Assembly: GCA_016710075.1 (NCBI GenBank)
Contig: JADJLO010000034.1
Location: forward strand, 13,484 to 77,483
Length of the DNA stretch: 64,000 bases
Direction of reading: 5' to 3'
Source of the DNA: Acidobacteriota bacterium
Lineage (GTDB): Bacteria; Acidobacteriota; Blastocatellia; RBC074
This document shows positions 1,131 to 58,215 of the stretch, in pieces. The notes under the pieces are model-generated. The model was not told the origin of the DNA. It made no database searches and saw nothing but the letters and a program-made list of their open reading frames with translations. A program made the position numbers and the translations under genes. Every line of letters begins with the position of its first letter. The stretch's first letter is position 1.

Positions 1131-1870
1131 TCACAAGGCAATCACGAAAACCGATTTGACGCCGGGGATTTTGCGAATCTCTGAGACTACAGCGCCGACG
1201 TCGGCTTTGTTCTGTGGTGGAATTTTCAGGGTTACAGTGCCTGATTTGACGCTCGAAAACCATTTCTCGGTTTCAGGCCTGGCATCGAGAACCTCTCTGA
1301 CATCGGCCTGAACAACGGCCTCGCTTCTGCCGATCATGGCGGTGCTCGCCTTTTGGGTTCCCCGCCCGACGGATCTGGCGCCCTTGACGGTCGCATTTCC
1401 AACTCCCTGGGCTGTCTCTTTGGTTTTCGAGACAACGGTGGAGCTGGCGTCCCAGGTTTTCTCGAGGCCGGTTTGTGTTCCCTCTTTGCCCCTGACTGCG
1501 GTGCTTGAACCTGCCCTTCCGGTCGCGGAGGTCGCGTCCTTGATTCCATAACCGATTGCGGGCAAAGTGCCGCCGCGGCGCAGGCTTTCGGCTCCTTTTC
1601 CGGTTGCGGGATATTTCAACTGAAGCCTCTCATAAGTGGGCCGGTCAATTCTCCCGGTGACTTTTAAGGCGTTGGCTTGCTGAATGACTTGACCGCTTCG
1701 CGGGTATCCCGATCGAGGACGCCGGTTGGTTTGGATTTGTAAAACCCGCGGTGAATCAATTCGGCCTGGACTGCGGTGACCTCTTTTTCGGTGATTCTCC
1801 ATTGAACCACGCCATCTACAGGCCGGCCATCATCCTGCACAACTGCGGCCATGGTTGCTGCCGGCAGCAT
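1131..1870 (-). CDS. PG_binding_1 + BON domain protein (apparent 1-nt deletion in a CC run near 1680 splits it into two ORFs)
   Basis: ORF 1664..1870 carries EVTAVQAELIHRGFYKSKPTGVLDRDTREAVKSF (PG-binding). ORF 1131..1802 carries ANALKVTGRIDRPTYERL and a C-terminal BON-like VQADVREVLDARPE...GTVTLKIP...IPGVKSV. Inserting one C in 'ttcagc' joins ...AVKSF to QQANALKVTG. Confidence 0.5.
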
Positions 1871-4196: not shown

Positions 4197-4335
4197 TTAC
4201 GCACAGCATGGAGTTCCTGCATGGAGTTCCGCCTTCAGGCGGAACTTCTCGACAATAAAGGCTAACCGCCTAAAGGCGGTACTCCATGCGGTTCCGCCTG
4301 AAGGCGGAACTCCATGCGGAACTCCATGCCGACTT
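4197..4335. repeat. structured palindromic intergenic repeat, copy 1 (27-bp perfect inverted arms GCATGGAGTTCCGCCTTCAGGCGGAAC around a hairpin core)
   Basis: About 105 bp are ~98% identical to 6810-6915. Arms GCATGGAGTTCCGCCTTCAGGCGGAAC / GTTCCGCCTGAAGGCGGAACTCCATGC; inner hairpin ACCGCCTAAAGGCGGT. Confidence 0.8.
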
Positions 4336-6771: not shown

Positions 6772-6776
6772 TTTAG

Positions 6777-6922
6777 TTCGGAGTACCTGCATGGAGTTCA
6801 TGGAGTACCTGCATGGAGTTCCGCCTTCAGGCGGAACGTCTCGGCAATAAAGGCTAACCGCCTAAAGGCGGTACTCCATGCGGTTCCGCCTGAAGGCGGA
6901 ACTCCATGCAGGTACTCCAAAC
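6777..6922. repeat. structured palindromic intergenic repeat, copy 2 (direct orientation relative to copy 1)
   Basis: Same 27-bp inverted arms and core as 4197-4335. The two copies bracket the divergent peptidase / secreted-protein gene pair. Confidence 0.8.
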
Positions 6923-6929
6923 AAGATAT

Positions 6930-7313
6930 ATGCCTGAAAAACCCTTTCGAATACTGATCGCTGAGGATTTCGATGATAATCGAATCGCGCTCAAACTAAT
7001 GCTCAAGCTGTCAGGCTATGAGGTCATCGAGGCCCGTGATGGAAGAGAGGCGCTGACGGCGACACGCGAAAAGAGGCCTCATGCGATCATCACGGATATC
7101 AATCTGCCGGAGATGGACGGCCTATCCGTCACCCGGGAGCTTCGCCGGGAAAGTGATTTCAGCCGGACGCCCATCATCATCGTCTCCGCCCATGACGGCA
7201 GCGAGATACGAGCGAGCGCACGCGAAGCCGGGGGCACAGCCTATATCAGCAAACCGATTGAATTCGATGAGCTCAAGCGCCTGCTCGATTCACTGCTCTC
7301 GGACGGGAACTGA
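6930..7313 (+). CDS. single-domain response regulator (CheY-like receiver)
   Basis: FRILIAEDFDDNRIALKLML...AIITDINLPEMDG...IIIVSAH...ISKPIEF. Start taken at the internal Met to avoid the repeat. Confidence 0.8.
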   Translation: MPEKPFRILIAEDFDDNRIALKLMLKLSGYEVIEARDGREALTATREKRPHAIITDINLPEMDGLSVTRELRRESDFSRTPIIIVSAHDGSEIRASAREAGGTAYISKPIEFDELKRLLDSLLSDGN

Positions 7314-7977
7314 CCCGGAGGATTCCTTCTCAGTTATGAGGCTGCGAACGTGTGCGACCAGCGCGGCGAGATCGCTTTTGCAGTAAAAGGCGAGTCTTGA
7401 GAGAGGTTCACGATCCAATATCAGGCCATTCCCGGTTTTCAAGCCATCAATGAATTGCGGTGTTAAGCATTCGGCCGAGCCTTCTTCTGAAAAGTAGATG
7501 GCATTGAACTGCCCCTTGAGAAGTCCTGCCCTTGCCGATGGCTTGATTTTTCCGGGATTGGATGGTGAAACGAGGATGGCGTAATCAGGGGTGACGTATT
7601 TCAGGAAGCTCGTCCCTTCGATCAAAACCCTTCCCGATCTGACGAGAGAGAGTGCTGCGGCCATGCCCTGTTCGACCTGGTCGTCGGTGGCGACCATCCA
7701 ATGGACATTTACCGTTCCCGCATCCCAATACCTGCCCGTGTCCTTTCCGGCGCTGCAGTTCTCATCCCTTCCGGAAAAAACCATGGGTTCTTCACCGAGC
7801 AGTCCACTGATGCAGCAGGTCTGAGGATCCTTCCCGCATGACCGATGATGACCGCGCGTGAGCTTGATCGCCTCCCATCCGGCATCTTGTGAAAGCTCCG
7901 AGATCAGATCGCAGAGCAGAGTCGTCTTGCCCGTGTTCGATGCGGTCCCGGAAATGGCGATAATCAGAGGCTTCATG
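7290..7977 (-). CDS. P-loop NTPase, MobB-like (uncertain family)
   Basis: MKPLIIAISGTASNTGKTTLL Walker A. The listed ORF N-terminus MFRLFRLFRN is translation of the adjacent repeat and was trimmed. Its 3' end overlaps the convergent response-regulator gene. Confidence 0.45.
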
Positions 7978-7983
7978 GGGAAA

Positions 7984-8140
7984 GAAAGATTACGAAACAG
8001 ACGAAATAAACGAAACAAACGAAAAAATTGAAGGGGCGGATTAGCCGATTTTCTTTAATTGCCAGTCCATCCAAAATGATTCGAACAATACCACCTCAAA
8101 CTTTTTCGCCTGTTTCGTTCATTCCGTCTGTTTCGTAATC
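7984..8140. repeat. MITE/BIME-like element: inverted pair of GATTACGAAACAGACGAAA(TAAACGAAACAAACGAAA) repeats flanking ~70 bp
   Basis: Left arm GATTACGAAACAGACGAAATAAACGAAACAAACGAAAAA; right arm ...CTGTTTCGTTCATTCCGTCTGTTTCGTAATCC. Same family at 965-1125, 34102-34250, 39134-39228, 52040-52215 and a half-copy at 54900-54950. Confidence 0.7.
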
Positions 8141-8147
8141 CATTCAT

Positions 8148-10925
8148 TTAGGCAGTCGTAGCCACGACAGCGCCGGTCTTGTCGGCCATGGCTGCGTGAG
8201 CGGCTGCGAGCAGTGCGATTGGTACGCGATAAGGCGAGCAACTGACATAGTTCATACCCGCCTTGTGGCAGAAGATGACCGATTCAGGATCACCTCCGTG
8301 CTCGCCGCAGATGCCGATCTTGAGATCGGCCTTGACCGAGCGCCCCTTTCTGATCCCCATTTCGATAAGCTGTCCGACACCCTCCTGATCGAGCGTCTGG
8401 AACGGATCATCCGGCATGATCTTGTGATCGACATAGTGAGGCAGGAAGCGTCCCGAATCGTCGCGGCTCAGTCCCATTGCAGTCTGAGTAAGGTCATTGG
8501 TGCCGAAGCTGAAGAACTGGGCGACCTCGGCGATGCGATTGGCGGTCAGGGCGGCTCTCGGCAACTCGATCATAGTGCCGACAAGATCCTCTCCCGTCTC
8601 GCCCTCGCGAGCAAAGTCCTCCTGTGCAACACGGTTGACGACATCCGCCTGCAGCTTCAGTTCATTCACATTGCCGACGAGCGGGATCATGATTTCGGGC
8701 TTGACGTCGATGCCTTCACGCTTGACCTTGACCGCGGCTTCGAAAATTGCGCGAGCCTGCATCTCCGTGATTTCAGGATAGACGATGCCGAGGCGGCAGC
8801 CGCGATGGCCGAGCATCGGATTGAACTCGTGAAGCTGTTCGACGCGGGCTTTGGCCTCCTTGAATGGCATGCGAATCTTCTTTGCCAGTTCCTTGAGCGC
8901 CTTGTCGTCGTGGGGAACGAATTCATGAAGCGGCGGATCGAGTGTGCGGATGGTCACCGGGTATCCGTTCATTGCGCTGAAGATGCCGACGAAATCCTCA
9001 CGCTGCAATTCGAGCAGCGCGGCAAGAGCGCCATGGTAGAGCTCCGACGGACGTTTGATCTTCTTCTTGATCTCGGCAATCCGCTTTTTGATCTCTTTGG
9101 CCTTCTCGCCGGAGGCTTTTTCAAGATCGCTTTTCGCGGCATCGAGCTGTTTTTCGATGCTCTTGTAATCGCCTGAAGAGAGGATCATCTGACGCACGCT
9201 GTCGATTCTTTCGCCCTCGAAGAACATGTGTTCGGTGCGGCAGAGGCCGATTCCCTCGGCTCCGAAGCTGCGGGCAACAGTTGCATCATGCGGCGTGTCC
9301 GCATTGGCGCGGACGCCAAGCTTGCGGAATTCATTGACCCACTCCATCAGTGTCTTGAAGTGGCCGCTGATCTCAGGGTTGATCAGCGTCACCTGCCCGG
9401 TTATAACCCTGCCGGTCGAGCCGTCAAGAGTGATCCAATCGCCTTCTTTGATCGTCACGTTGTTGGTGGTGAATTGTTTCGCAGAATAATCGATCGACAC
9501 ATCGCCGCAGCCGGCGACGCAGCATTTTCCCATCCCGCGCGCAACGACGGCCGCGTGAGAAGTCATACCGCCACGCGCCGTCAGAATCGCCTGAGCCAGA
9601 ACCATTCCGTGAAAATCCTCGGGCGAGGTCTCGATCCGAACAAGAATCACCTTCTCGCCTTTCTTGCCCAGAGCTTCGGCTGTGTCGGGATCGAAAACGA
9701 CCATGCCGCTGGCCGCGCCGGGCGATGCCGGCAGGCCGGTGGCGATGACGTTCACCTCCGACTTCGGATCGATCATGGGGTGGAGCAACTGATCAAGCTG
9801 CGCCGGCTCGACACGCTGAACTGCGGTGGCCTTGTCGATTACACCCTCCTTGACCATGTCCACAGCGATGCGAACAGCGGCAGCGCCGGTGCGCTTGGCG
9901 TTGCGTGTCTGCAGCATCCAGAGCCTGCCTCGCTCGATCGTGAATTCAAGATCCTGTACGTCCTTGTAATGTTTTTCCAGCCTCTGGGCGACCTTGTGGA
10001 AGTCGTCATAAATTTCCGGCATCTCCACCTTGAGCTGTGCAATCTTCTTAGGAGTGCGGATGCCGGCCACGACGTCCTCTCCCTGCGCGTTCTGCAGGTA
10101 TTCGCCGTAAAGCTCATGCTCGCCGGTTGAGACGTCCCTCGTGAAGGCCACACCCGTTCCCGAATCTTCGCCCATGTTTCCGAAGACCATGGTCATAATG
10201 TTGACTGCCGTTCCCAGATCGTCCGAAATCTTGTGAACCCGGCGATAATCCTTTGCCCGACGGCCGTTCCAGGAGGCAAAAACCGCCTTGATCGACAGTT
10301 CAAGCTGCTTGAGCGGATCGGTCGGAAAATCCTTGCCGGTCGCCTGCTTGACGATGACCTTGTAATCATCGACCAGCGCAGCGAGTTCCGCTGCGGGAAC
10401 TTTCGTGTCTTCGGTCACGCCTAGTCGTTTCTTGTATTCGTCAAACTTGTGCTCGAACTTCTCGGCATCTATCCCCATGACGATCTTGCCGAAGAGCTGT
10501 ATGAAACGGCGATAAGCGTCATACGAGAAACGCTCGTTGCCGGTAAGTTTCGCCAGCGCCCCTCGCGTCTCGTCGTTCAATCCGAGATTGAGAATCGTAT
10601 CCATCATTCCGGGCATCGAAAACTTCGCTCCGGAACGAACCGAAACCAGTAACGGATTGTCCGTCCCGCCAAATTTCTTACCCGTCGCTTCTTCGACTTT
10701 TCTGAGGGCGGCAAGCGATTCATCCCACATCCCTTCCGGGAATTTCTCTCCTGATGAATAGTAGGAGGTGCAGGCCTCAGTCGTAACGGTGAAGCCCGGC
10801 GGCACGGGAATCCCGGCATTGGTCATTTCAGCCAGCCCGGCGCCCTTCCCTCCAAGCAGATCCTTCATCGTGCCTGTTCCTTCGGCTTTGCCGTCGGCAT
10901 AAAGATAAACGTATTTTTTACTCAT
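8148..10925 (-). CDS. ppdK: pyruvate, phosphate dikinase
   Basis: MSKKYVYLYADGKAEGTGTMKDLLGGKGAGLAEM..., full-length ~925 aa with PEP-utilising and TIM-barrel regions. AAGGAG 8 nt upstream of ATG at 10925; the listed upstream extension overlaps the RBS. Confidence 0.9.
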   Translation of the reverse strand: MSKKYVYLYADGKAEGTGTMKDLLGGKGAGLAEMTNAGIPVPPGFTVTTEACTSYYSSGEKFPEGMWDESLAALRKVEEATGKKFGGTDNPLLVSVRSGAKFSMPGMMDTILNLGLNDETRGALAKLTGNERFSYDAYRRFIQLFGKIVMGIDAEKFEHKFDEYKKRLGVTEDTKVPAAELAALVDDYKVIVKQATGKDFPTDPLKQLELSIKAVFASWNGRRAKDYRRVHKISDDLGTAVNIMTMVFGNMGEDSGTGVAFTRDVSTGEHELYGEYLQNAQGEDVVAGIRTPKKIAQLKVEMPEIYDDFHKVAQRLEKHYKDVQDLEFTIERGRLWMLQTRNAKRTGAAAVRIAVDMVKEGVIDKATAVQRVEPAQLDQLLHPMIDPKSEVNVIATGLPASPGAASGMVVFDPDTAEALGKKGEKVILVRIETSPEDFHGMVLAQAILTARGGMTSHAAVVARGMGKCCVAGCGDVSIDYSAKQFTTNNVTIKEGDWITLDGSTGRVITGQVTLINPEISGHFKTLMEWVNEFRKLGVRANADTPHDATVARSFGAEGIGLCRTEHMFFEGERIDSVRQMILSSGDYKSIEKQLDAAKSDLEKASGEKAKEIKKRIAEIKKKIKRPSELYHGALAALLELQREDFVGIFSAMNGYPVTIRTLDPPLHEFVPHDDKALKELAKKIRMPFKEAKARVEQLHEFNPMLGHRGCRLGIVYPEITEMQARAIFEAAVKVKREGIDVKPEIMIPLVGNVNELKLQADVVNRVAQEDFAREGETGEDLVGTMIELPRAALTANRIAEVAQFFSFGTNDLTQTAMGLSRDDSGRFLPHYVDHKIMPDDPFQTLDQEGVGQLIEMGIRKGRSVKADLKIGICGEHGGDPESVIFCHKAGMNYVSCSPYRVPIALLAAAHAAMADKTGAVVATTA

Positions 10926-10976
10926 TAAATATTCTTCTCCTTCGAGATTAGTGATCTTAAATTTCAATTTTTGTAA

Positions 10977-14361: not shown

Positions 14362-15102
14362 TTAAGGTTTAAAGTTTGAACTGTCAGACAGAGTATCACT
14401 TTCCATTCTCAACTTTTCGAGAACGCCCTGAAACTTTGCCTGGATGGCCGGGTCGTCAGGGTCATCGACAGTGAATGGAGCCCCGATGACGACGAAGGCG
14501 CGTGAGAAGGGCTTCGGTATCTCGATCCTGTCCCAGCTTGGCAGCCGCCAGCAGTTCTCGAGTGAAATGGAAAAAGGAAGGATGGCGGCACCGGATTTCT
14601 TCGCGAGGAGCAGAGCGCCCGGTTTAGCCTGGTAGATGGGGCCGCGCGGTCCATCCACCGAAAAAGCTGCGCTGGTGCCGGATTTGACGGCGCGGATCAT
14701 TTGAATCAAGGCGGATCGCGCACCACGGGTCGAACTGCCCCTTGCCGCTCCGTAACCGAAACGCTGGATGAATCTGGCGATGTATTCCGAATCGAAGCTT
14801 TGAGAAGACATGACGATGATTCCGCGATCACGCCAGAAATATGTGGCGATCGGAATCCGGTTGTGCCAGAAACAATAGACCAGCGGTTGATTTTCAGAAT
14901 GGTTCTGATATCCGCTGATTTCGAATTTCAGGGTTGCGCCAATGACCCTGATAAGCCAGAACAGCCCCAATCCGGCGGCGCGGATAATGAGCCTTTGTTT
15001 GAAACTGTATTTATCGAGCGGGGCGAACGAATAGAGCTTTTTGAGCAGGGCGTCCAACCTCTCATCCCCCTCGACTGCCCCGTTTTTTTGAGTAAAGTCC
15101 AA
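14362..15102 (-). CDS. DUF374-family protein (lysophospholipid acyltransferase-like)
   Basis: LVYCFWHNRIPIATYFWRDRGIIVMSSQSFDSEYIARFIQRFGYGAARGSS is the characteristic DUF374 block. Confidence 0.65.
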   Translation of the reverse strand: MDFTQKNGAVEGDERLDALLKKLYSFAPLDKYSFKQRLIIRAAGLGLFWLIRVIGATLKFEISGYQNHSENQPLVYCFWHNRIPIATYFWRDRGIIVMSSQSFDSEYIARFIQRFGYGAARGSSTRGARSALIQMIRAVKSGTSAAFSVDGPRGPIYQAKPGALLLAKKSGAAILPFSISLENCWRLPSWDRIEIPKPFSRAFVVIGAPFTVDDPDDPAIQAKFQGVLEKLRMESDTLSDSSNFKP

Positions 15103-15430
15103 AGTCCAAAGTCAGGAGTTTAAAGTCTAAAGTTCAAAGTCTAAAGTCCGGATTTTAAAGTCCAAAGTCCAGGCGCAGGCGTCCCGGCTGCGTCAATTCG
15201 ATTAACGCAAGTCTGATATGAATGTGCGGATATTTCAATACAAGCAGGCGGGACGCCTGCGTACCCACTCGTATTTTTGGCGTTCTTGGCCCTCTTGGCG
15301 TTCCTGGCGATAAAATAATTTCTTAACCACAAAATCCGTTAGTTTCAGAAACTATAAACTTTAAACTTTGGACTTTAGACTTTGAACTTTAAACTTTGAA
15401 CTTTGAACTTTAAACTTGTATTCTCGATCT
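15095..15430. repeat. composite intergenic element: ~10 direct AAAGTYY heptamers - ~170-bp core with 19-bp inverted repeat (CGCAGGCGTCCCGGCTGCG / CGCAGGCGGGACGCCTGCG) - ~10 inverted heptamers (RAACTTT)
   Basis: Read directly: AAAGTCCAAAGTCCAAAGTCA...AAAGTCCAGG | core | AAACTATAAACTTTAAACTTTGGACTTT...AAACTTG. The core also holds the 30-mer TTAACCACAAAATCCGTTAGTTTCAGAAAC, which recurs in inverse at 61047-61076. Confidence 0.75.
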
Positions 15431-24276: not shown

Positions 24277-24298
24277 TTCGCAGATATATAATAAAAAA

Positions 24299-24343
24299 AC
24301 GAAGCAGACGAAAAAAACCTCACTTTTCCCGTCTGCTTCGTTT
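24299..24343 (+). terminator. intrinsic terminator after gdh
   Basis: GAAGCAGACG-(loop)-CGTCTGCTTCGTTTTATCTGCGTTTTTTTT. Confidence 0.55.
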
Positions 24344-24386
24344 TATCTGCGTTTTTTTTCGCGATTATTATTTTTTTATCGGCGTG

Positions 24387-31751: not shown

Positions 31752-32540
31752 TTGGAGATTATCATGGCTGAAAATGCTGATTATCAAGAGATCATTTATC
31801 AGATTACAAACAACATCGCATGGATCACGCTCAATCGTCCGGATAAACGCAACGCATTGAACGACGGGCTGGTCAACGACCTCAAAGCCGCTTTGAGATC
31901 CGCTGCCGATGACGATCAGGTGCGTGTCATCGTGGTTCGCGGCGCCGGAAAAGATTTCTGTGCCGGCGCGGATCTCTCCCAACTGCAGAAGATCGCTCAG
32001 GCGAACATCCTCGACAATCTGGAAGACGCCGAAGGCTTTTCGGAAATGCTTCTGAAAATGCGGAAGATCAAAAAGCCGGTCATCGCCGCAGTTCACGGTC
32101 GGGCTCTGGCCGGAGGAGCCGGCATCGCCTCGGCTTGCGATCTGGTTCTCGCAGCCAGATCGGCTTCTTTCTGTTACACCGAAGTAAAAATCGGTTTCGT
32201 CCCGGCAATGGTCAACGCCATAGCGCGCCGCAATCTCAGCGAGAAACGGGCATTCGAACTGCTCTGCACCGCCAAACCGCTGACAGCGGAAGAAGCCGAG
32301 AGAATCGGTTTCATCAATCGCGTCTTCGACGACGAAAGCTTCGAGGCCGATGTCGAAAAATATGCCGGCGACATCGCCCGGCTGAGCGCTTCCGCCATTG
32401 GCCTGACCAAGACTCTGCTTTACCAGACAGATGCTATGACCTTCGAACAGGCGCTGCGCGCAGGCGTCGAAATCAACGCCATTGCCCGCCAGACACCCGA
32501 TTGCCGGCAGGGCGTGGAAAAATTTCTCAATAAATCCTGA
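31752..32540 (+). CDS. enoyl-CoA hydratase/isomerase (crotonase) family protein
   Basis: [13 protein letters not shown]...[14 protein letters not shown] oxyanion-hole motif. Confidence 0.8.
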
Positions 32541-32556
32541 AAAGAGACCAGATAAA

Positions 32557-34098
32557 ATGTCGGCTCAAACGGCTGAGACAATACCTTCTTCAACCTCGAA
32601 ATTACGCTTGTATGTAACGCTCTTCGGAGTGGCCATGGCCATCTTCATGGGAGCCCTTGAAAACACCGTCGTCGGCACGGCGATGCCAACAGTGATAGCC
32701 AGTCTCGGCGGCATAGAGATCTACAGTTGGGTCTTTGCCGCCTACATTCTCGCCTCGACCGTCATGACCCCGATCTGGGGCAAGACGGCCGATCTGATCG
32801 GCAGGCGCCCGGCCATCTTCGGCGGCCTCGCGCTTTTCATCATCGGGTCCGCGCTCTCGGGCGCGTCACAATCGATGGAACAGTTGATAGTATTCAGAAT
32901 TATCCAGGGACTCGGCGCCGCGGCTCTCTTTCCCATTGGCATGACGATTGTCGCCGACATGCTTTCGCTCGAACAGCGGACTAAGATGATAGGCATCTTC
33001 AGCGGGATGTGGGGAGTCGCCAGTCTGGTCGGGCCGATTGCCGGAGGCTACCTGACCGCATACACGCGGCTATCATGGCGCTGGTGCTTCTACATCATCC
33101 TGCCGTTCGGCATTCTTGCGGGCATCATGATCGGCATTTCCTACCGGGAAAGATATGCCCGACGCGAAAATATCTCAATCGACTACGCGGGGATTGTCAC
33201 GCTGACTTCTGCGCTGGTGCTGCTGCTTCTGATAGTCGAGCAGAGCGCGCAGCTTTCACTGTCGAAAAATCTAATCGCCCTGACGGTTTGCGGACTTCTG
33301 CTGGCGGCATTCTTCAGAATCGAAAAGACGCACGCCGACCCGCTGATCCCGCTCAGCCTGTTCAGGAATAAAACCATAGCAGTCGCCACGCTGCACGGAT
33401 TTTTCGCGATGATGGCCCTCATCGGCACGATGTCGTTCCTGCCGCTTTTCGTTCAGGCGGTGATCGGGACAAATGCGGCTGAAGCGGGGAAAGTGCTGAT
33501 TCCCTTCATTATTCCGTGGGTGCTCGCTTCGATCATCGGCGGCAGGTTGATTATGAGATTCGGATACAGAAACCTGGTCATTGCCGGGATGACCTCGATG
33601 TTCATCGGATCGGCATTGCTTACGCGGATCTCGTCCGGCACCACTCTCAAGGGCCTCGCACTCTGCACAATCTTTCTGGGTCTGGGCGGCGGGCTGACGG
33701 TCGTCACGCTCATGATCGCGGCTCAACATTCGGCAGACCGCAAGGAACTCGGCATTACGACCTCGACCGTGCAGTTTTCGCGCAGCATCGGCGCCGCGCT
33801 GGGCACCGCAATCATGGGATCATTGATGACCTGGCGGCTCGGCAGGCTGCTGGCAAACGCCCCGTCTGAGATCGCCGCCCTCGCAAAACACAGCGAGATC
33901 GGCTCGATCGTGACTCCTGAAAGCCGGAAGGCCATGTCCCCGGCCGCAACTGCTTTTCTACAACAGGCTCTGGCGGGTTCGTTGAACTGGGCTTTTACTT
34001 TCGTCTTTTTCGCCGTAATTGCAGGAACTGTCGTCGCCTTCTTCATTCCCCGAGGCCACATCCATCACTTCGAACCCAATGTCGTTCCTCACGAATGA
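32557..34098 (+). CDS. MFS transporter, DHA2-like (14 TM)
   Basis: TM-rich throughout; MFS motif [12 protein letters not shown]. Start taken at MSAQT rather than the ORF-track start, which overlaps the crotonase gene. Confidence 0.8.
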
Positions 34099-34101
34099 AG
34101 A

Positions 34102-34250
34102 AAACAGATTACGAAACAGACGAAAATTCTCAAAGGAGGGGTTCGCGTAAATCAAATATTCCATCTTTCGGGAAAATTGAATGGTCTCGTACATTGACGG
34201 TCAGTATATTTTTCGTTTGTTTCGTTTATTTCGTCTGTTTCGTAATCTAT
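34102..34250. repeat. MITE/BIME-like element, GATTACGAAACAGACGAAA family (inverted pair around ~85 bp)
   Basis: GATTACGAAACAGACGAAAATTC ... TTTCGTTTGTTTCGTTTATTTCGTCTGTTTCGTAATC; lies between convergent genes. Confidence 0.7.
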
Positions 34251-34264
34251 CTCTTCTCTTTTTC

Positions 34265-35041
34265 TCAACTCACCAGCCGGCGTCTCAGGCTTCGCAGAGC
34301 CAGTTCAGCGGTCAGGACGAAGGCGACTATGAGATAGAGCAATTCGAAGACGGTTCTCCAGGAGAAATGCCCGATCATCAGACCGCGCGAAATATCCACT
34401 GCCGCGGTCACCGGCACCAGCCAGGCCAGAACTTGAACCAGTTGAGGCATTTTATCCAGGGGGAAATAGGCTCCAGAGATCCAGAGATATGAAAAAACAA
34501 AGGCGAGATAGAAATTGAAGTAATTGATATCGCGGATTCTGGCGGTGACGATGATCGAAAGGGCCGCGACCCAGAGCGCCGCAATCGACAGGATGAACGG
34601 AATCAGAATGCCCAGAGGAGAAAGGACGGCTCCGAACAGGGAGAGAACCCCGAGGACGAATATCCCGTCAAGCAAAGCTTTTGATGCTCCCCATGCAATC
34701 TCGCCGAGAGCCAGACTTTCAACCTCGACCGGCGTGCACAAGACCGCATCGAAAGTCGATTGATAGACCATTCGAAAATACGAGCCATAAGTGCATTCGA
34801 ACAAGGCGCGCAGCAGCGCGGTGAATGCCAGCAATCCCGCACCGACAAATGTCAGGTAGGGCACTCCCATCACATTGCCTGCGACAAGCGAGCCGACTCC
34901 CCACCCGAATCCCATGACCGTGAAGATGGGCTCGAAAAGCGGCGCCACCATTTCAGTGCGCCAGAGCCTGATGTAAACGTCGTAATTTCTGCGCCATACC
35001 CGAAACAGGTCGCCCGGATTGACATTCGCAAGGGCAATCAT
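34265..35041 (-). CDS. ABC-2 type exporter permease
   Basis: Six TM helices, ABC-2 (NodJ-like) pattern. Confidence 0.75.
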   Translation of the reverse strand: MIALANVNPGDLFRVWRRNYDVYIRLWRTEMVAPLFEPIFTVMGFGWGVGSLVAGNVMGVPYLTFVGAGLLAFTALLRALFECTYGSYFRMVYQSTFDAVLCTPVEVESLALGEIAWGASKALLDGIFVLGVLSLFGAVLSPLGILIPFILSIAALWVAALSIIVTARIRDINYFNFYLAFVFSYLWISGAYFPLDKMPQLVQVLAWLVPVTAAVDISRGLMIGHFSWRTVFELLYLIVAFVLTAELALRSLRRRLVS

Positions 35042-37238: not shown

Positions 37239-37354
37239 ACTTTGTACTTTAAACTCATTAGTCTGTGCCATAAAAAGCTCATTCTCTCCGTTGCGGAAAG
37301 GCCCTGTTAGTTAAAAGTTTGTAGCAGCGCTTTTCCCAAATCGCATCAAATTTG

Positions 37355-37512
37355 CGACCTCCATGGAGTGCGGCGACTTGTCGCCGCTTTGGTATTGTTC
37401 CAGAAATCCTGTTAAATCGGTGGGCGGTTTGCGGTGGATTAGATTTTTCCCAATATTTGAGTGGCCACAGGACTACCAGAGCGGCGACAGGTCGCCGCAC
37501 TCCATGGAGTCC
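37355..37512. repeat. pair of inverted palindromic units (CTCCATGGAGTGCGGCGACnnGTCGCCG) flanking ~90 bp
   Basis: CCATGGAGTGCGGCGACTTGTCGCCGC at 37362 and CGGCGACAGGTCGCCGCACTCCATGGAG at 37480. The CTCCATG / GTCGCC motifs relate it to the 4197 / 6777 element. Confidence 0.6.
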
Positions 37513-37628
37513 GCCTGTTTTCAATGATCCACGTATCATCGGTTCATGCTTTCAACTTTCCGCAACGGAGCTCATTCTTCTCGAACTTGACAGAGATGGC
37601 GCGGATCTGTAGTATGCGAATTTGCCGC

Positions 37629-37712
<84 letters not shown>

Positions 37713-37886: not shown

Positions 37887-39125
37887 ATGAGCAAATTTGA
37901 CGCCTATTCTGCGCTGCGAGTCCGGGATTTCCGCTTTTTTCTTGCGGGGCATCTCATCTCTGTGCTCGGGGTACAGATGCAGACGGTGGCCGTCGGATGG
38001 GAGCTTTACGAAAAGACATCTTCTGCCATGGCGCTGGGACTGGTCGGGTTGATCCAGGTCATTCCGATGCTCGGGCTTGCGCTTCCCGCCGGGCAGTTGG
38101 CCGACAAGTTCGACCGTCGAAAAATCCTGATGTCGGCGACCGTTCTGGCTTCAATCAGTGGGTTCGGACTTGCTGTGGTATCTCTGACCGGTGGCTCTGC
38201 AAAGATGATCTTTGCCTTTCTTTTGCTCAGCGGGATAGGCAGGGCGTTTCAGGGGCCGGCGAGATCGTCATTGATGCCTCAGCTCGTTCCGCTGCCGGTT
38301 TTCGGCAATGCCGTCAGATGGGCGATCGGCGGGTTCGAGCTCAGTTCGATGATCGGCCCGGCGCTTGGAGGCCTGACCATTGCAATGATGAAAAGCGCAT
38401 CCAGTGTCTATATTTTCTCCGGTTTTGCCAGTATCTTCTATTTTCTGATGCTTTCTTTGCTGAGCAAGAGATCATATACGGCTGAGAAGAAAGCTCTAAC
38501 CGAAATAAAATCGAGTCTGAGATCGCTGATAGCCGGTTTCGGTTACGTCTGGAAAACCCGGATTCTCTTTGCGGCGATGTCGCTCGATCTGTTTGCAGTG
38601 CTTTTCGGAGGCGCAGTAGCTCTGCTTCCGGTCTATGCAAAAGACATTCTCGCCGTGGGCCCCACTGGACTCGGCTGGCTCCAGGCAGCGCCGTCGCTGG
38701 GAGCAGTTACAATGGCCCTGCTGACGACTCACCTCCCACCATTCAAAAAAGCCGGCAGGGCGCTGCTGATCTCGGTAGTCGGCTTCGGCATCGCAACAAT
38801 AGTCTTCGGTATCTCCAGAAATTTCATGCTCTCGATTGTCATGTTGTTCCTGACGGGAGCTTTCGATAATATCAGCGTCATTATCCGGCAAACCCTGATG
38901 ACGTTGCTGACGCCGGATGAGATGCGCGGACGGGTTTCAGCCGTCAACGGGATGTTCATCAATGCCTCGAATGAACTTGGGAGATTCGAGTCAGGCTCTA
39001 TCGCATTCCTGTTCGGGCCTGTGGTATCGGTCGTCAGCGGTGGCATCGGCACGATTATAGTCGTCACACTCATTGCCCTGCTTTCACCTCAACTGCGTGA
39101 ATACGGTGAGCTGGAAGGTAAGTGA
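37887..39125 (+). CDS. MFS transporter (12 TM)
   Basis: Hydrophobic throughout; MFS motif between TM2 and TM3 (GQLADKFDRRK). Confidence 0.8.
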   Translation: MSKFDAYSALRVRDFRFFLAGHLISVLGVQMQTVAVGWELYEKTSSAMALGLVGLIQVIPMLGLALPAGQLADKFDRRKILMSATVLASISGFGLAVVSLTGGSAKMIFAFLLLSGIGRAFQGPARSSLMPQLVPLPVFGNAVRWAIGGFELSSMIGPALGGLTIAMMKSASSVYIFSGFASIFYFLMLSLLSKRSYTAEKKALTEIKSSLRSLIAGFGYVWKTRILFAAMSLDLFAVLFGGAVALLPVYAKDILAVGPTGLGWLQAAPSLGAVTMALLTTHLPPFKKAGRALLISVVGFGIATIVFGISRNFMLSIVMLFLTGAFDNISVIIRQTLMTLLTPDEMRGRVSAVNGMFINASNELGRFESGSIAFLFGPVVSVVSGGIGTIIVVTLIALLSPQLREYGELEGK

Positions 39126-39133
39126 AGAAGGAG

Positions 39134-39228
39134 AAAAGAGATTACGAAACAGAGATGAAAATGTTTATTCACTGATTAATCATTTTCGTCTGTTTCGTTT
39201 TTTTCGTCTGTTTCGTAATCTGTTTTGA
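39134..39228. repeat. MITE/BIME-like element, GATTACGAAACAGACGAAA family
   Basis: GATTACGAAACAGAGATGAAAATG ... TTTTCGTCTGTTTCGTTTTTTTCGTCTGTTTCGTAATCTG. Confidence 0.7.
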
Positions 39229-41800: not shown

Positions 41801-41805
41801 ATGAG

Positions 41806-41920
41806 AGCGCAGGCGTCTCGCCTGCCGGAATTCAATACTCGAACCCTGGCCATCGAATAGGCTACGATTGAATTCAAGCAGGCGGGGCGCCTGCGGTCCC
41901 ACTCGCTTGTCACTGTTTGT
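41806..41920. repeat. hairpin-repeat element (GCGCAGGCGTCTCGCCTGC - 52 bp - CAGGCGGGGCGCCTGCGGTCCCACTCGCTTGTCACTGTTTGTC); left boundary of the Rhs/TA block
   Basis: The right arm plus tail (43 bp) is 100% identical to 47882-47924. Confidence 0.8.
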
Positions 41921-50833: not shown

Positions 50834-52036
50834 ATGAATCGCAAATTTTTATCTTTGTTATTGCTTATTTTGATGGGAACAATAATTCAGACTGCATCTG
50901 CTCAATTCCGTGATCAGGTAGGACAGGGTAGTCAGGCTACTGACATTCAGCGAGAGCTTGTCAGACGCGAGCTTGAGAACCAGGTATCCACTCAGAGAGG
51001 CGGTAACGTCACCGTGAGGATCGACCGCGCCTGGTCAAATAATCTGAGCAACCGCGAAACGAATATTCGCGGCACGGCGCTGATCTCTGTTCGTCGCGGA
51101 AGAGAAGAGGCGATCGATTTCGACGCTGTGATCGACACACGATCCAACCGCGTTACCAGAGTTGACTGGAGGCCCGCAGGTCAGGGCAACCAGGGCGATT
51201 ACAATAGACCGGACTACAACCGGCCGTCTTCCGGTCAGTTTCAAAGCGGACGATACGAGATCCAACTGGTTGCAACGAATCGGATGCTTGCAGTGGGCGC
51301 CAATCGCACCGTGGTGCAGACGGATTCGCGCAACAACCGCAATCAGGGATGGGTATTGGAGGATGCCGGCAACGGATTATATTACATCAAGTCTGCAGAT
51401 ACTGGTGAGGTGATGACGGTCAGCGGCGGCGGCAGCGGATCAAGCATTGTGCTCGCCCGCCAGCGCAGAGGCAGTGACGACCAGCTTTGGGAAATCAGAA
51501 GCGGGCCCGATAATGACTACTACCTCATCAGCAGACGCGGTCAGGCCATGGATTCACCAAGCAGCGCGCGTTACGACGGAGGCCGGATGCAGGTATACAA
51601 TCGCAACGGCGAAGCCAATCAGAGGTTCAGGCTCAATCCGGTTGCCGGTGGGAGGGATGACAACTACGACCGCCGTCGCCAGGGAAATCCCCCTTATGAC
51701 CGCAGGCCAGGTGACTATGACCAGCGGCCCGGATATGGCGGCAGTGGCAGCATGACCTGGAGCGGCCGTGTCGATGGCACCGTTGAATTGATCATTCAAG
51801 GCAATTACGTCAGAGAGAACAATATCGACGGCCAGGCCGTATACAATTCACGCTCGCGATTCAGCTCGCAGCTCCCGAATGCCAATGTCAGGGTCAGCGT
51901 CAGCAAACTGCGAGGTAGAGGCCGCGTCGAAATCATCGAACAGCCTTCACAGAACAACCGCTTCTCTGCCGTCATCAGAATCCGCGACGAACAGGGCGGC
52001 GCCGATGATTATGAGATCCAGGTGAACTGGAACTAA
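50834..52036 (+). CDS. secreted protein with ricin-B-type (beta-trefoil) lectin domain
   Basis: Signal peptide. Three QxW-like repeats (NQGWVLE, DQLWEI, NQRFRL) spaced ~40 aa apart in the middle third. Flanking Arg/Asn/Asp-rich segments are unassigned. Confidence 0.65.
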   Translation: MNRKFLSLLLLILMGTIIQTASAQFRDQVGQGSQATDIQRELVRRELENQVSTQRGGNVTVRIDRAWSNNLSNRETNIRGTALISVRRGREEAIDFDAVIDTRSNRVTRVDWRPAGQGNQGDYNRPDYNRPSSGQFQSGRYEIQLVATNRMLAVGANRTVVQTDSRNNRNQGWVLEDAGNGLYYIKSADTGEVMTVSGGGSGSSIVLARQRRGSDDQLWEIRSGPDNDYYLISRRGQAMDSPSSARYDGGRMQVYNRNGEANQRFRLNPVAGGRDDNYDRRRQGNPPYDRRPGDYDQRPGYGGSGSMTWSGRVDGTVELIIQGNYVRENNIDGQAVYNSRSRFSSQLPNANVRVSVSKLRGRGRVEIIEQPSQNNRFSAVIRIRDEQGGADDYEIQVNWN

Positions 52037-52039
52037 GAG

Positions 52040-52215
52040 AAGGAAAGAAGGAAAGAAAGATTACGAAACAGACGAAAAAGAACCAATGGGTGAAGCTTAC
52101 TTTATCGTTCTGAAGTATGTGTGACTGATAATTCTCAAACGATCATACATCTAAATTTTCGTCTGTTTCGTTTATTCCGTTTGTTTCGTAATCTATCCCC
52201 CCTGTTTCGTAATCT
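52040..52215. repeat. MITE/BIME-like element, GATTACGAAACAGACGAAA family (with duplicated right arm)
   Basis: GATTACGAAACAGACGAAAAAGAACC ... TTTTCGTCTGTTTCGTTTATTCCGTTTGTTTCGTAATCTATCCCCCCTGTTTCGTAATCTATCCCCC. Confidence 0.7.
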
Positions 52216-52226
52216 ATCCCCCTTCG

Positions 52227-52931
52227 CTACTCGAACAGCCCCGGAACGGCCTGATGCAGATCGCGGCTGGCGAACCACTCGACCCAGCGGACGCGGCCGG
52301 CCTTGATGGCGTCCCGCACCAGTTTTTCTCTTCTTGTGAGGGCCGACATTCCGGTTTTGATTTCAACGAAGACGACATTGCGTACCTGATTCTCCTCGTC
52401 GTCATTGAGGCCGTCAAAGACCACGAAGTCGACGGGGCTGCCGATAAAGCGGACATCTTTCGGATTGAAATCGAAATTCGGCAGGTAGGGAACGATGTGT
52501 TCGGTGACCTTTCCGATCGTCACCGCCTGGCTTCGCTGGACGGCGTCGAGGCGGATGATCTTCTCCTGTTCGTGTTTCCATTTGATGAGGTCGGTTGTGG
52601 CTTCACGGTGTGCGATTTCACGCTGCTCACGGCGCATCGCTTCGAGCTCATTCTGGGACCAGTCTTTGAAGAGAGAATGAGCCTGAATCAAAGCTTCCTT
52701 CTGCAAGGTGGCCTGTATTGCCTTGACCTCGCGATCACGCCATTCTTCAAATCGATTGCGCACTTTGTCCTGCATCATCATTTCTTCTCTTCGACGCCAG
52801 AGCTCGAATTCTTCCTGAACGATCGAGGGGATTCTGCCCCTGAGAGTGGCGTAGCGATAAACGAAGAAGACCGTGGCAATGATCGAAATGAACAGGAATG
52901 TCAGCAGAGCAATATGCAGTATGTCAATCAT
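52227..52931 (-). CDS. membrane-anchored coiled-coil protein with C-terminal PD-(D/E)xK nuclease-like domain (COG4741-like, Holliday-junction-resolvase-related)
   Basis: N-terminal TM helix, ~120-aa Glu/Arg-rich coiled coil, then VDFVVFDGL...VVFVEIKTG (D...E.K motif). Confidence 0.55.
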   Translation of the reverse strand: MIDILHIALLTFLFISIIATVFFVYRYATLRGRIPSIVQEEFELWRRREEMMMQDKVRNRFEEWRDREVKAIQATLQKEALIQAHSLFKDWSQNELEAMRREQREIAHREATTDLIKWKHEQEKIIRLDAVQRSQAVTIGKVTEHIVPYLPNFDFNPKDVRFIGSPVDFVVFDGLNDDEENQVRNVVFVEIKTGMSALTRREKLVRDAIKAGRVRWVEWFASRDLHQAVPGLFE

Positions 52932-54899: not shown

Positions 54900-54950
54900 G
54901 ATTCTTTCGCTTGTTTCGTTTACTTTGTCTGTTTCGTAATCCCTTCTTCC
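54900..54950. repeat. solo arm of GATTACGAAACAGACGAAA-family repeat
   Basis: TTTCGCTTGTTTCGTTTACTTTGTCTGTTTCGTAATCCC. Confidence 0.6.
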
Positions 54951-56957
54951 TCAGGCAATCAGTTTCTTGACGCGTTCGACAATATTCGATGCCGTGAATC
55001 CGAAATTCTCATAGAGAACCTGATACGGCGCCGACGCGCCGAAGCGATCGAGACCGATCATATCGCCCCTGTCTCCGACATAATTGCGCCAGCCGAAAGT
55101 CAACCCGGCTTCGATCGAGACTCTACTGGTGACTGCCGGCGGCAGGACCTCATCGCGATAAGCCTGTGATTGCCGGTCGAAAAGCTCCCAGCTCGGCATG
55201 CTGACGACTCTGGCGCCGATGCCCTCGGCAGTCAGCTTGTCCTGGGCTTCAATGGCGATCGAGACTTCAGAGCCCGTTGCGATGATGATCGCATCGATTT
55301 TGCCCGTGGGGGATTCGCTCATGACGTAGGCGCCCTTGATCACATTTTCTGCTGAAGCGTATCTGGTTCGATCGAAGACCGGAAGTTTCTGCCGAGAGAG
55401 AGCGATGGCAGTCGGGCCGTGTTGATTTTCGAGCGCGACGCGCCAGGCTACGGCGGTCTCATTGGCATCGGCTGGTCGCAGCAGCACAAGGTTGGGTAGC
55501 GCCCGCATTCCCATGAGGTGCTCGACCGGCTGGTGAGTCGGACCGTCCTCGCCCAGTCCAATGCTGTCGTGCGTGTAAACATAGATTGCCTGCAGCCCCA
55601 TCATCGCAGCCAGCCTCACGGGCGGCCGCATGTAATCGTAGAAGACCATGAACGTCCCGCCAAAAGGGATCAACGGCCGCGTCAGCGAAATGCCGTTCAT
55701 GAGCGATCCCATGGCATGTTCGCGCACTCCGAAGTGGAAGTTCCGGCCCGAGTAATTATCCGGCTGAAACTCTCCCATGCCTTCAAGAAACGTATTGTTG
55801 GATGGGCGCAGATCGGCGGAGCCTCCCAGAAGCATCGGCAGGGATTTCGCAAATGCATTGAGAGCCTTACCGGAAGCCTCGCGAGTAGCCATAGGCTTGT
55901 CTGCCGGGAACGACGGCATGGCATGCTCCCAGCCCTCGGGAAGTTTTCCGCTGAACCACTGGCTGAACTCCGCGGCAAGCTCCGGGTGAGCCTTCGAATA
56001 GGCATCAAACCTCGACTTCCATGCGCTCTCCGATTGAGCGCCGATGCCAACCGCGCCGCGAAAATGATCGAGCGACTCATCAGGCACGGTGAACGGTTCG
56101 TCGTAGGGCCATCCCAGATTCTGCTTCGTCAGTTTGATTTCATCGACACCGAGCGGCTCTCCGTGAGCTTTAGATGTTCCTGCGCGGTTTGGACTGCCGT
56201 ACCCGATGACCGATCTGACGCAGATGATCGATGGACGCGGGTCAGCCTGGGCCTGCCTGATTGCCGCCTCTATGGATTCAAGATCATTGCCATCATCGAC
56301 CTGCTGGACATGCCAGTTGTAGGCCTTAAAGCGTTTTGCGTGATCCTCGCTGAAGGCAACGCTCGTGCTGCCGTCAATCGAGATATGATTGTCGTCATAA
56401 AGGTAGATCAACCGCCCAAGCTTCAAATGGCCGGCGAGCGAAGCCGCCTCAGAGGCCACTCCCTCCATCAGGTCGCCATCGGAAACAATTGCGTAGGTGT
56501 AGTAATCGAACAGCTCATGTCCCGGCCGGTTGAAGTGCGCCGCCAGATATTGAGCGCCGATGGCCATTCCAACAGCATTGGCGAATCCCTGGCCCAGCGG
56601 CCCGGTTGTCGTTTCGATTGCCCGTGAAAGCTCGGATTCAGGATGGCCGGGAGTCATGCTTCCCCACTGCCGGAACTGCTTCAATTGATCGAGCGGAAAA
56701 TCATCGTACCCCGTCAGGTAAAGCAGGCTGTAGAGCAGCATCGACCCATGCCCTGCCGAGAGCACAAACCTGTCGCGATTCACCCATGCCGGATTCTTCG
56801 GATTGTGGCGCAGAAATTTCGTCCAGAGAACATAAGCCGCAGCAGCCATGCCCATGGGCATTCCCGGATGCCCGGAATTCGCCTTCTGAACCGCATCCAT
56901 CGCCAGCGTCCGAATCGTGTTGATTGAAAGTTGATCCAGAGTTTTTTGATCTGACAT
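54951..56957 (-). CDS. tktA: transketolase
   Basis: [36 protein letters not shown]; ThDP-binding GDG...N; full-length 668 aa. Confidence 0.9.
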
Positions 56958-57960: not shown

Positions 57961-58215
57961 GTACCGTAAATAATGAAAAAAACGGAACAAACGGAAGGAG
58001 GTGAAAGGAAGTATCTGGAGAGCAATCGGGAAAATAATTCGGCGAAATGGCCATACGAGCTGGGGCGCAGGCGTCTCGCCTGCGTATTATTTGTTATTGA
58101 GAAAATGTTGTTTCACGAGTTTGCATCTTACCACTCATCGCAGGCGAGACGCCTGGCGCCCCTCACTCGTATGGCCATTTCGGCAGTGAACTCTTTAAAC
58201 TTTGAACTGATTTCC
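57961..58215. repeat. long-inverted-repeat element (~40-bp arms GAAATGGCCATACGAG..GGGGCGCAGGCGTCTCGCCTGCG around a 57-bp centre) plus flanking heptamers
   Basis: Left CGGCGAAATGGCCATACGAGCTGGGGCGCAGGCGTCTCGCCTGCG; right CGCAGGCGAGACGCCTGGCGCCCCTCACTCGTATGGCCATTTCGGC; then CTTTAAACTTTGAACT. Confidence 0.7.

Follow-up and report, generated by a model that had tools for sequence, protein, structure and literature searches.

The REPINs of Pseudomonas fluorescens SBW25, i.e. hairpin-forming doublets of REPs (repetitive extragenic palindromic sequences) that are associated with REP-associated tyrosine transposases (RAYTs; PMC3116915), are the closest described architecture to that of the CGAAA family of inverted repeats, which we analyzed in a 64-kb stretch of a Blastocatellia (Acidobacteriota) contig (JADJLO010000034.1; "the window" in the following). 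Both consist of conserved inverted sequences around a less conserved spacer, are strictly extragenic and present in many copies per genome, have a long predicted hairpin in single-stranded DNA or RNA, and are inherited vertically, with long persistence at a site. However, the spacing of the GI REPINs is 71 bp and compensatory changes are described as "common" among them (PMC3116915), whereas the CGAAA family has no fixed spacing (centres of ~10-110 nt and elements of 74-182 nt in the window and in loci of metagenome-assembled genomes, MAGs) and no compensatory changes are seen. Its arm is built from 9-nt periodic direct repeats without a palindromic core, and no RAYT was seen among the open reading frames (ORFs) of the window and the retrieved flanks. 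For these reasons, the elements are not REPINs.

The REPs and bacterial interspersed mosaic elements (BIMEs) of enterobacteria are similar in their intergenic position after stop codons within and between operons, their frequent arrangement as inverted pairs, their high copy number, and the roles proposed for them as attenuators, mRNA stabilisers or protein-binding sites. A REP unit, however, is an imperfect palindrome of 20-40(-60) bp that folds alone, whereas the present arm is not palindromic. According to PMC3733652, the REP palindrome ends on one side in a conserved tetranucleotide tag, GTAG or CGTC, whereas the outer end of the present arm reads aAGAGA-GATTACG (74 arms) without a terminal tag, and CGTC occurs only internally, on the complementary strand. 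BIME linkers belong to few conserved motif types, while the linker is arbitrary here. With MITEs (miniature inverted-repeat transposable elements) such as those of the IS1 and IS6/IS26 type, which have GGnnnTG ends and duplications of 8-9 bp (PMC6807381), the family has in common inverted repeats at its ends, a small size, a lack of coding capacity and insertion polymorphism, and one of its subfamilies has G[GA]TA[AG]TGG termini and target-site duplications (TSDs) of 8-11 bp. Nevertheless, most copies, including all those in the window, have neither a TSD nor an outer terminal inverted repeat (TIR), the centres of different copies bear no relation to each other, the retrieved loci contain no autonomous partner, and conservation of the inner 43 nt goes far beyond the needs of transposition alone. 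As in invertons, both orientations exist between strains and between species, but there is no promoter-like site in the centre of the focal copy, many centres are shorter than 30 nt, and the window contains no recombinase.

Three further comparisons can be made. The Correia elements (CREE/NEMIS) of Neisseria are intergenic TIR elements of ~100-150 bp that are co-transcribed with their neighbours and form long hairpins, but their interior is conserved, and they come with a TA duplication and an IHF site; none of these features is seen in the present family. Hairpin-loop inversion by quasipalindrome template switching, known from chloroplast non-coding DNA and from E. coli mutagenesis, reverse-complements short spacers between inverted repeats, recurrently and homoplasiously, without a dedicated recombinase; there, isolated loci are known, whereas here a whole dispersed family is concerned, and at strain level. 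The heptamer arrays of cyanobacterial short tandemly repeated repetitive sequences (STRRs) consist of short tandem repeats with a changing number of units, as do the present arms, but neither obligate pairing in inverted orientation nor a position next to stop codons belongs to the definition of STRRs.

The CGAAA family is thus a previously undescribed, REPIN/MITE-like family of foldback repeats that lies outside REP, REPIN and every Rfam family. On balance, we consider it probable that its members are lineage-specific, non-autonomous repeats of part of the Blastocatellia that derive from a mobile element.

Loci and arms of the CGAAA family

With up to three mismatches, the 19-mer GATTACGAAACAGACGAAA matches the window 10 times, compared to 0.01 matches expected from shuffled sequence. 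An nhmmer search of the window with a profile built from 71 arms returned seven full arms, three short arms and one partial duplicate, and no other significant match. The arms lie at six loci (A-F), all intergenic, which corresponds to a density of ~1 per 10 kb:

Locus A, 970-989, + strand: left arm, decayed (GATCACAAAACAAACGGAAG), 10 nt past the TAA stop (957-959) of a + strand gene
Locus A, 1082-1118, - strand: right arm, full, 12 nt from the stop of gene 1131-1802 (-); nhmmer E=1.2e-8
Locus B, 7988-8024, + strand: left arm, full, outer end 11 nt from the ATG (7976) of gene 7290-7976 (-)
Locus B, 8104-8140, - strand: right arm, full, 7 nt from the stop of the pyruvate phosphate dikinase (PPDK) gene 8148-10967 (-)
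Locus C (focal), 34107-34125, + strand: left arm, short, 8 nt past the stop of the MFS gene 32482-34098
Locus C, 34126-34210, no strand: centre of 85 nt, not conserved in other copies
Locus C, 34211-34247, - strand: right arm, full, 17 nt from the stop of the ABC-2 permease gene 34265-35041 (-)
Locus D, 39140-39153, + strand: left arm, truncated, 14 nt past the stop of the MFS_3 gene 37887-39125
Locus D, 39184-39220, - strand: right arm, full, 34 nt upstream of the LarA start (39255)
Locus E, 52059-52077, + strand: left arm, short, 22 nt past the stop of gene 50834-52036
Locus E, 52157-52193, - strand: right arm, full, with an outer-end duplicate to 52214; adjoins the stop of gene 52227-52931 (-)
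Locus F, 54905-54941, - strand: solo arm, 9 nt past the stop of the transketolase gene 54951-56957 (-)
Possible seventh locus, 24293-24345, no strand: minimal relative, AAAACGAAGCAGACGAAAAAA, 7-nt spacer, TTTTCCCGTCTGCTTCGTTTT; 21-nt arms, weak nhmmer matches

In locus A, the inverted-repeat pair 959-989/1081-1111 is 71% complementary; the partial duplicate of locus E (52202-52214) results from a 22-nt tandem duplication of the right arm's outer end; and the solo arm of locus F is kept in strain L156 with two single-nucleotide polymorphisms (SNPs). The initial annotation, which had described inverted pairs of a repeated unit at these loci, is borne out in this respect, as it is in its gene contexts (three convergent, A, C and E; three tandem, B, D and F; always intergenic) and in the non-conserved interiors, since the centres in the window measure 30-92 nt and are mutually unrelated. 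Its view of the unit as an internal direct repeat that is not palindromic agrees with the CGAAA boxes every 9 nt and the purine/C-rich, not self-complementary composition, and only spurious ORFs cross the elements. The unit it gave is real, but too short: the conserved arm runs ~6 nt further outward (aAGAGA) and measures ~43 nt. Silent it was on the flipping of the centres and on the sequence-level, non-structural constraint on the arms, both of which are treated below.

In the logo of 74 arms, conservation extends from position -6 to +37 and reads aAGAGA GATTACGAAACAGACGAAAATAACGAAACAGACGAAA, i.e. aAGAGA-GATTACG followed by four CGAAA boxes at 9-nt spacing, which can also be viewed as an 18-nt unit present twice. 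Degenerate positions recur at 9-nt intervals (positions 12, 20 and 30), and the inner edge of the arm is abrupt, while outward the conservation gradually fades into a purine-rich flank. Because GATTACGAAACAGACGAAAATAACGAAACAGACGAAA is purine/C-rich and has almost no T, an arm does not pair with itself, and a hairpin can form only between two arms. In all 38 paired copies from the window and the MAG loci, the GATTACG ends point outward, and the opposite arrangement does not occur. Centres of different loci cannot be aligned, except within the subfamily of the MAG JANPFS01. When read as RNA, the 5' flank is rich in A and G and the 3' flank is rich in U and C. The predicted stem is AU-rich and has 20-45 bp, followed by a tail with the consensus UCUCUU and further pyrimidines; the predicted folding energies are -81.8 kcal/mol for the whole element B (z -10) and -50.1 kcal/mol for element C (z -4.8).

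Over all loci, 23 tandem and 7 convergent contexts were found, besides one doubtful divergent one. Distances of 0-30 nt to a stop codon and of 4-60 nt to the following start are usual, so that the spacer is filled by the element. The window neighbours are unrelated housekeeping genes that code for PPDK, transketolase, MFS and ABC-2 transporters, LarA, a lectin and a P450. The gene beside element E (52227-52931, 234 aa) resembles a Holliday junction resolvase; its counterparts have 197 aa in L156 (10001-10594) and 132 aa in L157 (1369-1767), and these shortened products suggest frameshifts or assembly errors.

The possible seventh locus consists of an A-tract, a hairpin and a T-tract, with each arm identical at 16 of 18 positions to one 18-nt family unit. 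Situated between convergent ORFs, it has the look of a bidirectional terminator, and it may be a minimal relative of the family, or represent the terminator type from which the CGAAA family arose.

Several other identities of the elements were considered and not retained. A coding function of the arms was rejected, as no reading frame is conserved in the centres and their length varies. An outward promoter was rejected as well, because the best fit, TTTCGT-17-TAATCT, reaches only 5 of 12 positions and the promoter scan was empty at locus C. A reading of the arm as Hfq (ARN)n motif or as Rho-type YC periodicity was judged by eye and is unsupported. Integron attC sites were rejected from the sequence in view of the mixed gene orientation, the distances of 5-25 kb between copies and the lack of an R''/R' core.

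Arm constraint and centre flipping

If the hairpin as such was under selection, the two arms of an element should match each other better than they match arms of other elements, and this is not the case. In 32 arm pairs, 89.0% of the cells pair, compared to 89.2+-0.4% when the right arms are shuffled among elements, and the covariation score is 0.082 versus 0.089 in the arm shuffle. In a separate count, compensated positions number 15 versus 18.7 expected, and 157 positions are discordant. There is no excess of G:U on the sense strand in tandem contexts (33 G:U versus 29 A:C). Given the lack of covariation and of a sense-strand G:U bias, there is no positive evidence for selection on an RNA fold. 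The arms are nevertheless conserved: in five orthologous pairs between MAG species, they are identical at 350 of 370 positions (94.6%), while the flanking DNA is ~85% identical, so that orthologous arms evolve ~3 times slower than their flanks. The centres of the same five pairs range from unalignable to 100% identity. As the arms are conserved without covariation, each arm is held to a primary-sequence consensus, and not to mutual complementarity or to the hairpin as such. The constraint is strand-symmetric, and the overall pattern has the signature of protein recognition or homogenisation rather than that of an RNA stem. That the arms are conserved in sequence and not in structure suggests that they have a protein partner.

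In contrast to the arms, the centres drift, change their length and flip, and the arms gain or lose 18-nt units. Three of the four alignable between-species orthologous pairs (L038/L045, L002/L030 and L027/L040) have the centre and the inner arms reverse-complemented relative to unchanged flanks, and only in L009/L044 is the centre collinear. Among paralogues of the JANPFS01 subfamily, the centre of L010 is flipped versus L020 and L026, as judged relative to the asymmetric outer TIRs. At strain level, the centre of locus C is reverse-complemented in L149 and L150 versus the window and five other strains (two of eight), although the ABC-2 protein of L149 is identical to that of the window and the neighbouring proteins of the flipped strains are 97-100% identical. 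In L150, the centre matches at 78 of 105 positions as reverse complement, compared to 50 of 114 in direct orientation. The exact inverted stretches do not exceed ~25 nt, and L149 and L150 are independent assemblies that have the flipped state and interior SNPs in common; an assembly artefact was therefore judged unlikely from the assembled sequence. At sites D and E, no orientation change was found among 3-7 strains.

Other changes accompany the flips. The short left arm of locus C results from an exact deletion of one 18-nt unit, which is present in L144, L145, L146 and L150, and the short left arm of locus E has one 18-nt unit less than in L156 and L157. The 22-nt tandem duplication at locus E is likewise a difference between strains, and the outer (GAGAA)n flank of locus C varies in length among strains. 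Together, flips, unit insertions and deletions, duplication and (GAGAA)n variation point to slippage and to template switching or recombination in a long imperfect palindrome, and the flips would then be by-products of these processes. A programmed switch is less likely, as many centres are too short, the promoter scan detected no promoter-like site in the centre of locus C, and no invertase is encoded nearby.

Mobility and rival explanations

The occupancy of site D argues for insertion. Seven strains with 96-99% nucleotide identity have this site filled, with the orientation unchanged, and it is empty in L141, L142 and L143 (~80% amino-acid identity), where the syntenic MFS_3-LarA spacer has only 24 or 80 nt. 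Comparison with relatives thus revealed the presence/absence polymorphism for which the initial annotation had proposed to look. At site B, the relatives (L057-L060; 78-84% PPDK identity) are without the family, but synteny is not kept there; they have an ordinary GC-rich hairpin with a T-tail after the PPDK stop, and one of them holds a relic. The JANPFS01 subfamily occurs at at least five distinct loci with different flanks, and its copies are bounded by a further, outer TIR of 21-32 nt (G[GA]TA[AG]TGG..CAGGAGA); GGnnnTG ends are typical of the IS1 and IS6/IS26 families (PMC6807381). Convincing TSDs of 8-11 bp are present at four of its loci (L010, L020, L026 and L043; e.g. CATTTTCAA, AGAATTTTT and GTAGAATG). 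Finally, the variant AAATAAACG is common to the window copies, whereas most MAG copies have AAAATAACG, as expected from an amplification within lineages.

These observations indicate that copies were amplified within lineages, that at least one subfamily is still transposing, and that inserted copies were then inherited vertically. Mobility is demonstrated in part, and several points weigh against a mobile-element origin of the whole. Of the 37 copies tested, 33, among them every copy of the window, have no TSD above chance, and any flanking 9-mer repeat with up to one mismatch was found in 9 of 37 copies versus 4.9 expected; the TSDs that had been suggested as a check thus exist in the JANPFS01 subfamily (four loci), but neither in the window nor in most other copies. 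All five orthologous sites between MAG species are occupied in both species, which means that mobility is low outside the JANPFS01 subfamily. In ~1 Mb of retrieved loci, there is no autonomous element with the family ends, and Pfam listings of the window ORFs and the retrieved flanks contain no transposase, RAYT, invertase or other recombinase. The TSD-bearing subfamily could be a different MITE that captured the core element. Unrelated centres are not predicted by a copy-and-paste MITE, and would fit one only with copies of great age or with a centre that is not part of what is copied. The orientation calls rest on short-read assemblies. As regards a terminator function, the stem is AU-rich and far longer than canonical ones, and the tail is UCUCUU instead of a U-run. 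Since most copies have neither a TSD nor a common interior, the elements are not textbook MITEs, with the sole exception of the JANPFS01 subfamily. The earlier assignment to a "REP/BIME-like or decayed MITE family" therefore pointed to the right neighbourhood, as the elements are dispersed, intergenic, presence-polymorphic and include one TSD subfamily, but membership in REP, REPIN or textbook MITE families does not hold.

How could such elements function as mobile-element-derived repeats? The arms may be arrays that a protein acting in trans recognises, in the simplest case a transposase, or a domesticated relative of one, whose gene lies elsewhere, with one DNA-binding module per 9-nt box. 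The long inverted repeat would promote template switching or intramolecular recombination, with centre inversion and unit insertions and deletions as by-products. Once transcribed, the element is predicted to fold into a hairpin of 20-45 bp (-50 to -82 kcal/mol), flanked by purine-rich sequence on the 5' side and by U/C-rich sequence on the 3' side, and this hairpin most plausibly would act as a bidirectional transcription stop or as a 3'-end protector. Such a role would explain why the elements are tolerated or retained by the host, and a terminator or RNA-stabiliser role is plausible, as the elements abut stop codons and ordinary terminator hairpins take the place of element B in relatives.

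What alternatives exist for a mobile-element origin? The elements could in principle be host-evolved bidirectional intrinsic terminators, or hairpins for RNase III processing or mRNA stability, whose likeness is due to a common functional constraint or to local duplication. The position right after stop codons in convergent as well as tandem contexts, the strong predicted folds, the A/G-rich 5' and U/C-rich 3' flanks, the 18-nt unit in the mini hairpin at 24293-24345 and the ordinary GC-rich hairpin with T-tail that relatives have exactly at the position of element B all agree with this. We nevertheless regard it as unlikely, because the compensatory changes and the sense-strand bias of G:U over A:C that would be expected are both absent, termination does not need 37-43 nt of primary sequence at dozens of unrelated genes and across species, solo (F) and truncated (D) arms persist, and the TSD subfamily and the empty site D show that insertion took place. 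The constraint on primary sequence would be accommodated if the arms were arrays of DNA sites for a host protein, be it nucleoid-associated, chromosome-organising or a regulator, with four 9-bp boxes per arm and two inverted arms forming one site. The degenerate positions every 9 nt (12, 20, 30), the lack of covariation, the strand symmetry and the ~3 times slower evolution of orthologous arms relative to their flanks are in line with such arrays. However, the flanking genes (PPDK, transketolase, MFS, ABC-2, LarA, lectin) are functionally unrelated, the copies are at 3' ends of genes and virtually never in divergent promoter regions, close relatives do without the family, the TSD subfamily is mobile, and no candidate protein was found, which makes host-protein arrays rather improbable.

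Both flipping and uniformity of the family have also been considered as primary functions. The elements could be programmed inversion switches ("mini-invertons"), with a site-specific recombinase that recognises the arms and reversibly flips the centre. The inverted centres in three of the four alignable orthologous pairs, the inversion among paralogues of one subfamily, the inversion at site C between strains with 97-100% identical neighbouring proteins, and the resemblance of the arms to protein-recognition arrays would all be explained by such switches, but centres down to 10-25 nt are too short for a promoter or for synapsis by known invertases, the centre of C has no promoter-like site, no recombinase gene is nearby, sites D and E are invariant among 3-7 strains, and the same loci have the unit deletions and duplications that are typical of replication slippage or template switching. 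Moreover, hairpin loops are known to invert spontaneously in chloroplast DNA. The chance that these are dedicated switches is therefore slim. A related view, in which the arms are arrays of four 9-bp boxes for a dedicated recombinase or domesticated transposase that actively inverts the centres, so that the strain-level flips are programmed, seems very doubtful to us as well; if it were true, tiny terminator cassettes, protein-driven and either invertible or dynamic in structure, would be spread over the whole Blastocatellia chromosome, with ~1 per 10 kb in the window. As for uniformity, uptake-signal-like sequences could be kept alike by biased DNA uptake and recombination, with inverted pairs doubling as terminators in the manner of the pairs of DNA uptake sequences (DUS) of Neisseria. 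Conservation across species without covariation, inverted pairs with variable spacers after stop codons, and the lack of TSDs in most copies would fit, but 43 nt is several-fold longer than any uptake signal known to us, copies are never found inside genes and almost never solo, the window has only ~1 copy per 10 kb, a low density for such a signal, and transposition better accounts for the TSD subfamily and the lineage-specific variants. We thus give this last idea hardly any credence.

Distribution, other repeats and significance

A scan with the 19-mer against one genome per species detected it mainly in Blastocatellia MAGs (JANPFS01, JANNYF01, JANNND01, JBBQVH01 and JAEUQN01), and the family is present in at least five Blastocatellia MAG species besides that of the window. 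The genome comparison proposed in the initial annotation thus gave a motif that is dispersed, strictly intergenic and common to several Blastocatellia genomes. Canonical copies of the Blastocatellia family are also present in the MAG CAZWAK01, which carries the unverified label Heliobacteriaceae. In this MAG, a solo arm lies inside a different inverted repeat (CACCACAGAGGCGCAGAG ... CTCTGCGTCTCTGCGGTG; L039 ~640-820), and this arrangement suggests a nesting of repeat families. Homologues of the proteins encoded in the window bear Blastocatellia or Acidobacteria names, which places the window in this class. Near-identical strains of the window were reached through protein homologues. Direct DNA homology between the window and the MAG loci was not found, and the cross-species orthologous pairs therefore comprise MAG species only.

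Viral contigs gave nine single 19-mer matches, all in coding or unpaired sequence (DYETDE-type peptides), and a phage element was therefore rejected. These matches, and most single matches in other phyla, which likewise are coding or unpaired, look like chance. Four single non-coding matches (L006 ~3316, L025 ~7088, L029 ~5238 and L037 ~2594) in MAGs of a proteobacterium, Acidiferrum, Pyrinomonadaceae and Opitutales all read (T)CTGATTACGAAACAGACGAAA and have an extra CT in common, which is not predicted by chance; they could be due to mis-binning or belong to a wider related motif.

As to prior descriptions, an Rfam search of the whole window at gathering threshold returned two tRNAs only, and for loci B and C in E-value mode only sub-threshold matches to miRNA-precursor-like hairpins were obtained. 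A literature search with the arm sequences gave only unrelated primer matches, and a search on MITEs of Acidobacteria yielded nothing on the CGAAA family.

The window has several other intergenic hairpin repeat families. At 37290-37561, just upstream of the tRNA-Leu(cag) gene (37629-37712), there is an insertion of ~272 nt that none of the near-identical strains (L144-L150) has. It comes with a 9-bp target duplication (GCTCATTCT), TIRs (CTCCGTTGCGGAAAG / CTTTCCGCAACGGAG) and an interior 41-nt inverted repeat (37354-37394 / 37474-37514), and is a bona fide MITE that belongs to another family. Inverted arrays of heptamers, (AAAGTCY)n, are found in a divergent intergenic region (15093-15417), with arms of 55-67 nt that are 79-85% complementary and ~190 nt apart, i.e. 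a tandem-repeat-armed hairpin design with a different unit. In addition, there is a REP-like palindromic family, GCATGGAGT-GTTCCGCCTGAAGGCGGAAC, and a second one, GCAGGCG..CGCCTGC; the window coordinates of these REP-like families are 4219-4317 and 6776-6922; 15174-15261, 41802-41901 and 58068-58155. Blastocatellia relatives without the CGAAA family have inverted (GCGGATT)n arrays with variable centres directly after stop codons (L060 12794-12873 and 17992-18060; L059 9193-9305 and 12215-12418; L141 4896-4995; L058 ~16989), and one such array stands after the PPDK stop, at the place of element B in the window. The Blastocatellia thus seem to be unusually rich in tandem-repeat-armed hairpin elements.

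Many short-read contigs end in or at the edge of an element (L138, L139 and L140 at their start; L149 and L151-L155 at their end); most of these are Logan contigs, plus one ENA contig (L149). The Logan breaks fit arms that are longer than the k of 31. In practical terms, the elements break short-read assemblies and create spurious ORFs and N-terminal extensions, while the orientation of the centre is a fast strain marker.

The Blastocatellia abound in soil, and in the literature searched we found no description of dispersed repeat families from them. The CGAAA family demonstrates that the REPIN/MITE design, with conserved inverted ends, a free centre and a position after stop codons, can be built from non-palindromic arms with a 9-nt period. 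If the centres flip by template switching, the family would be a natural dispersed reporter of this mutational process in bacteria. The (GCGGATT)n arrays, which have the same architecture with another unit, suggest that there is a general way of making or spreading such elements in Blastocatellia.

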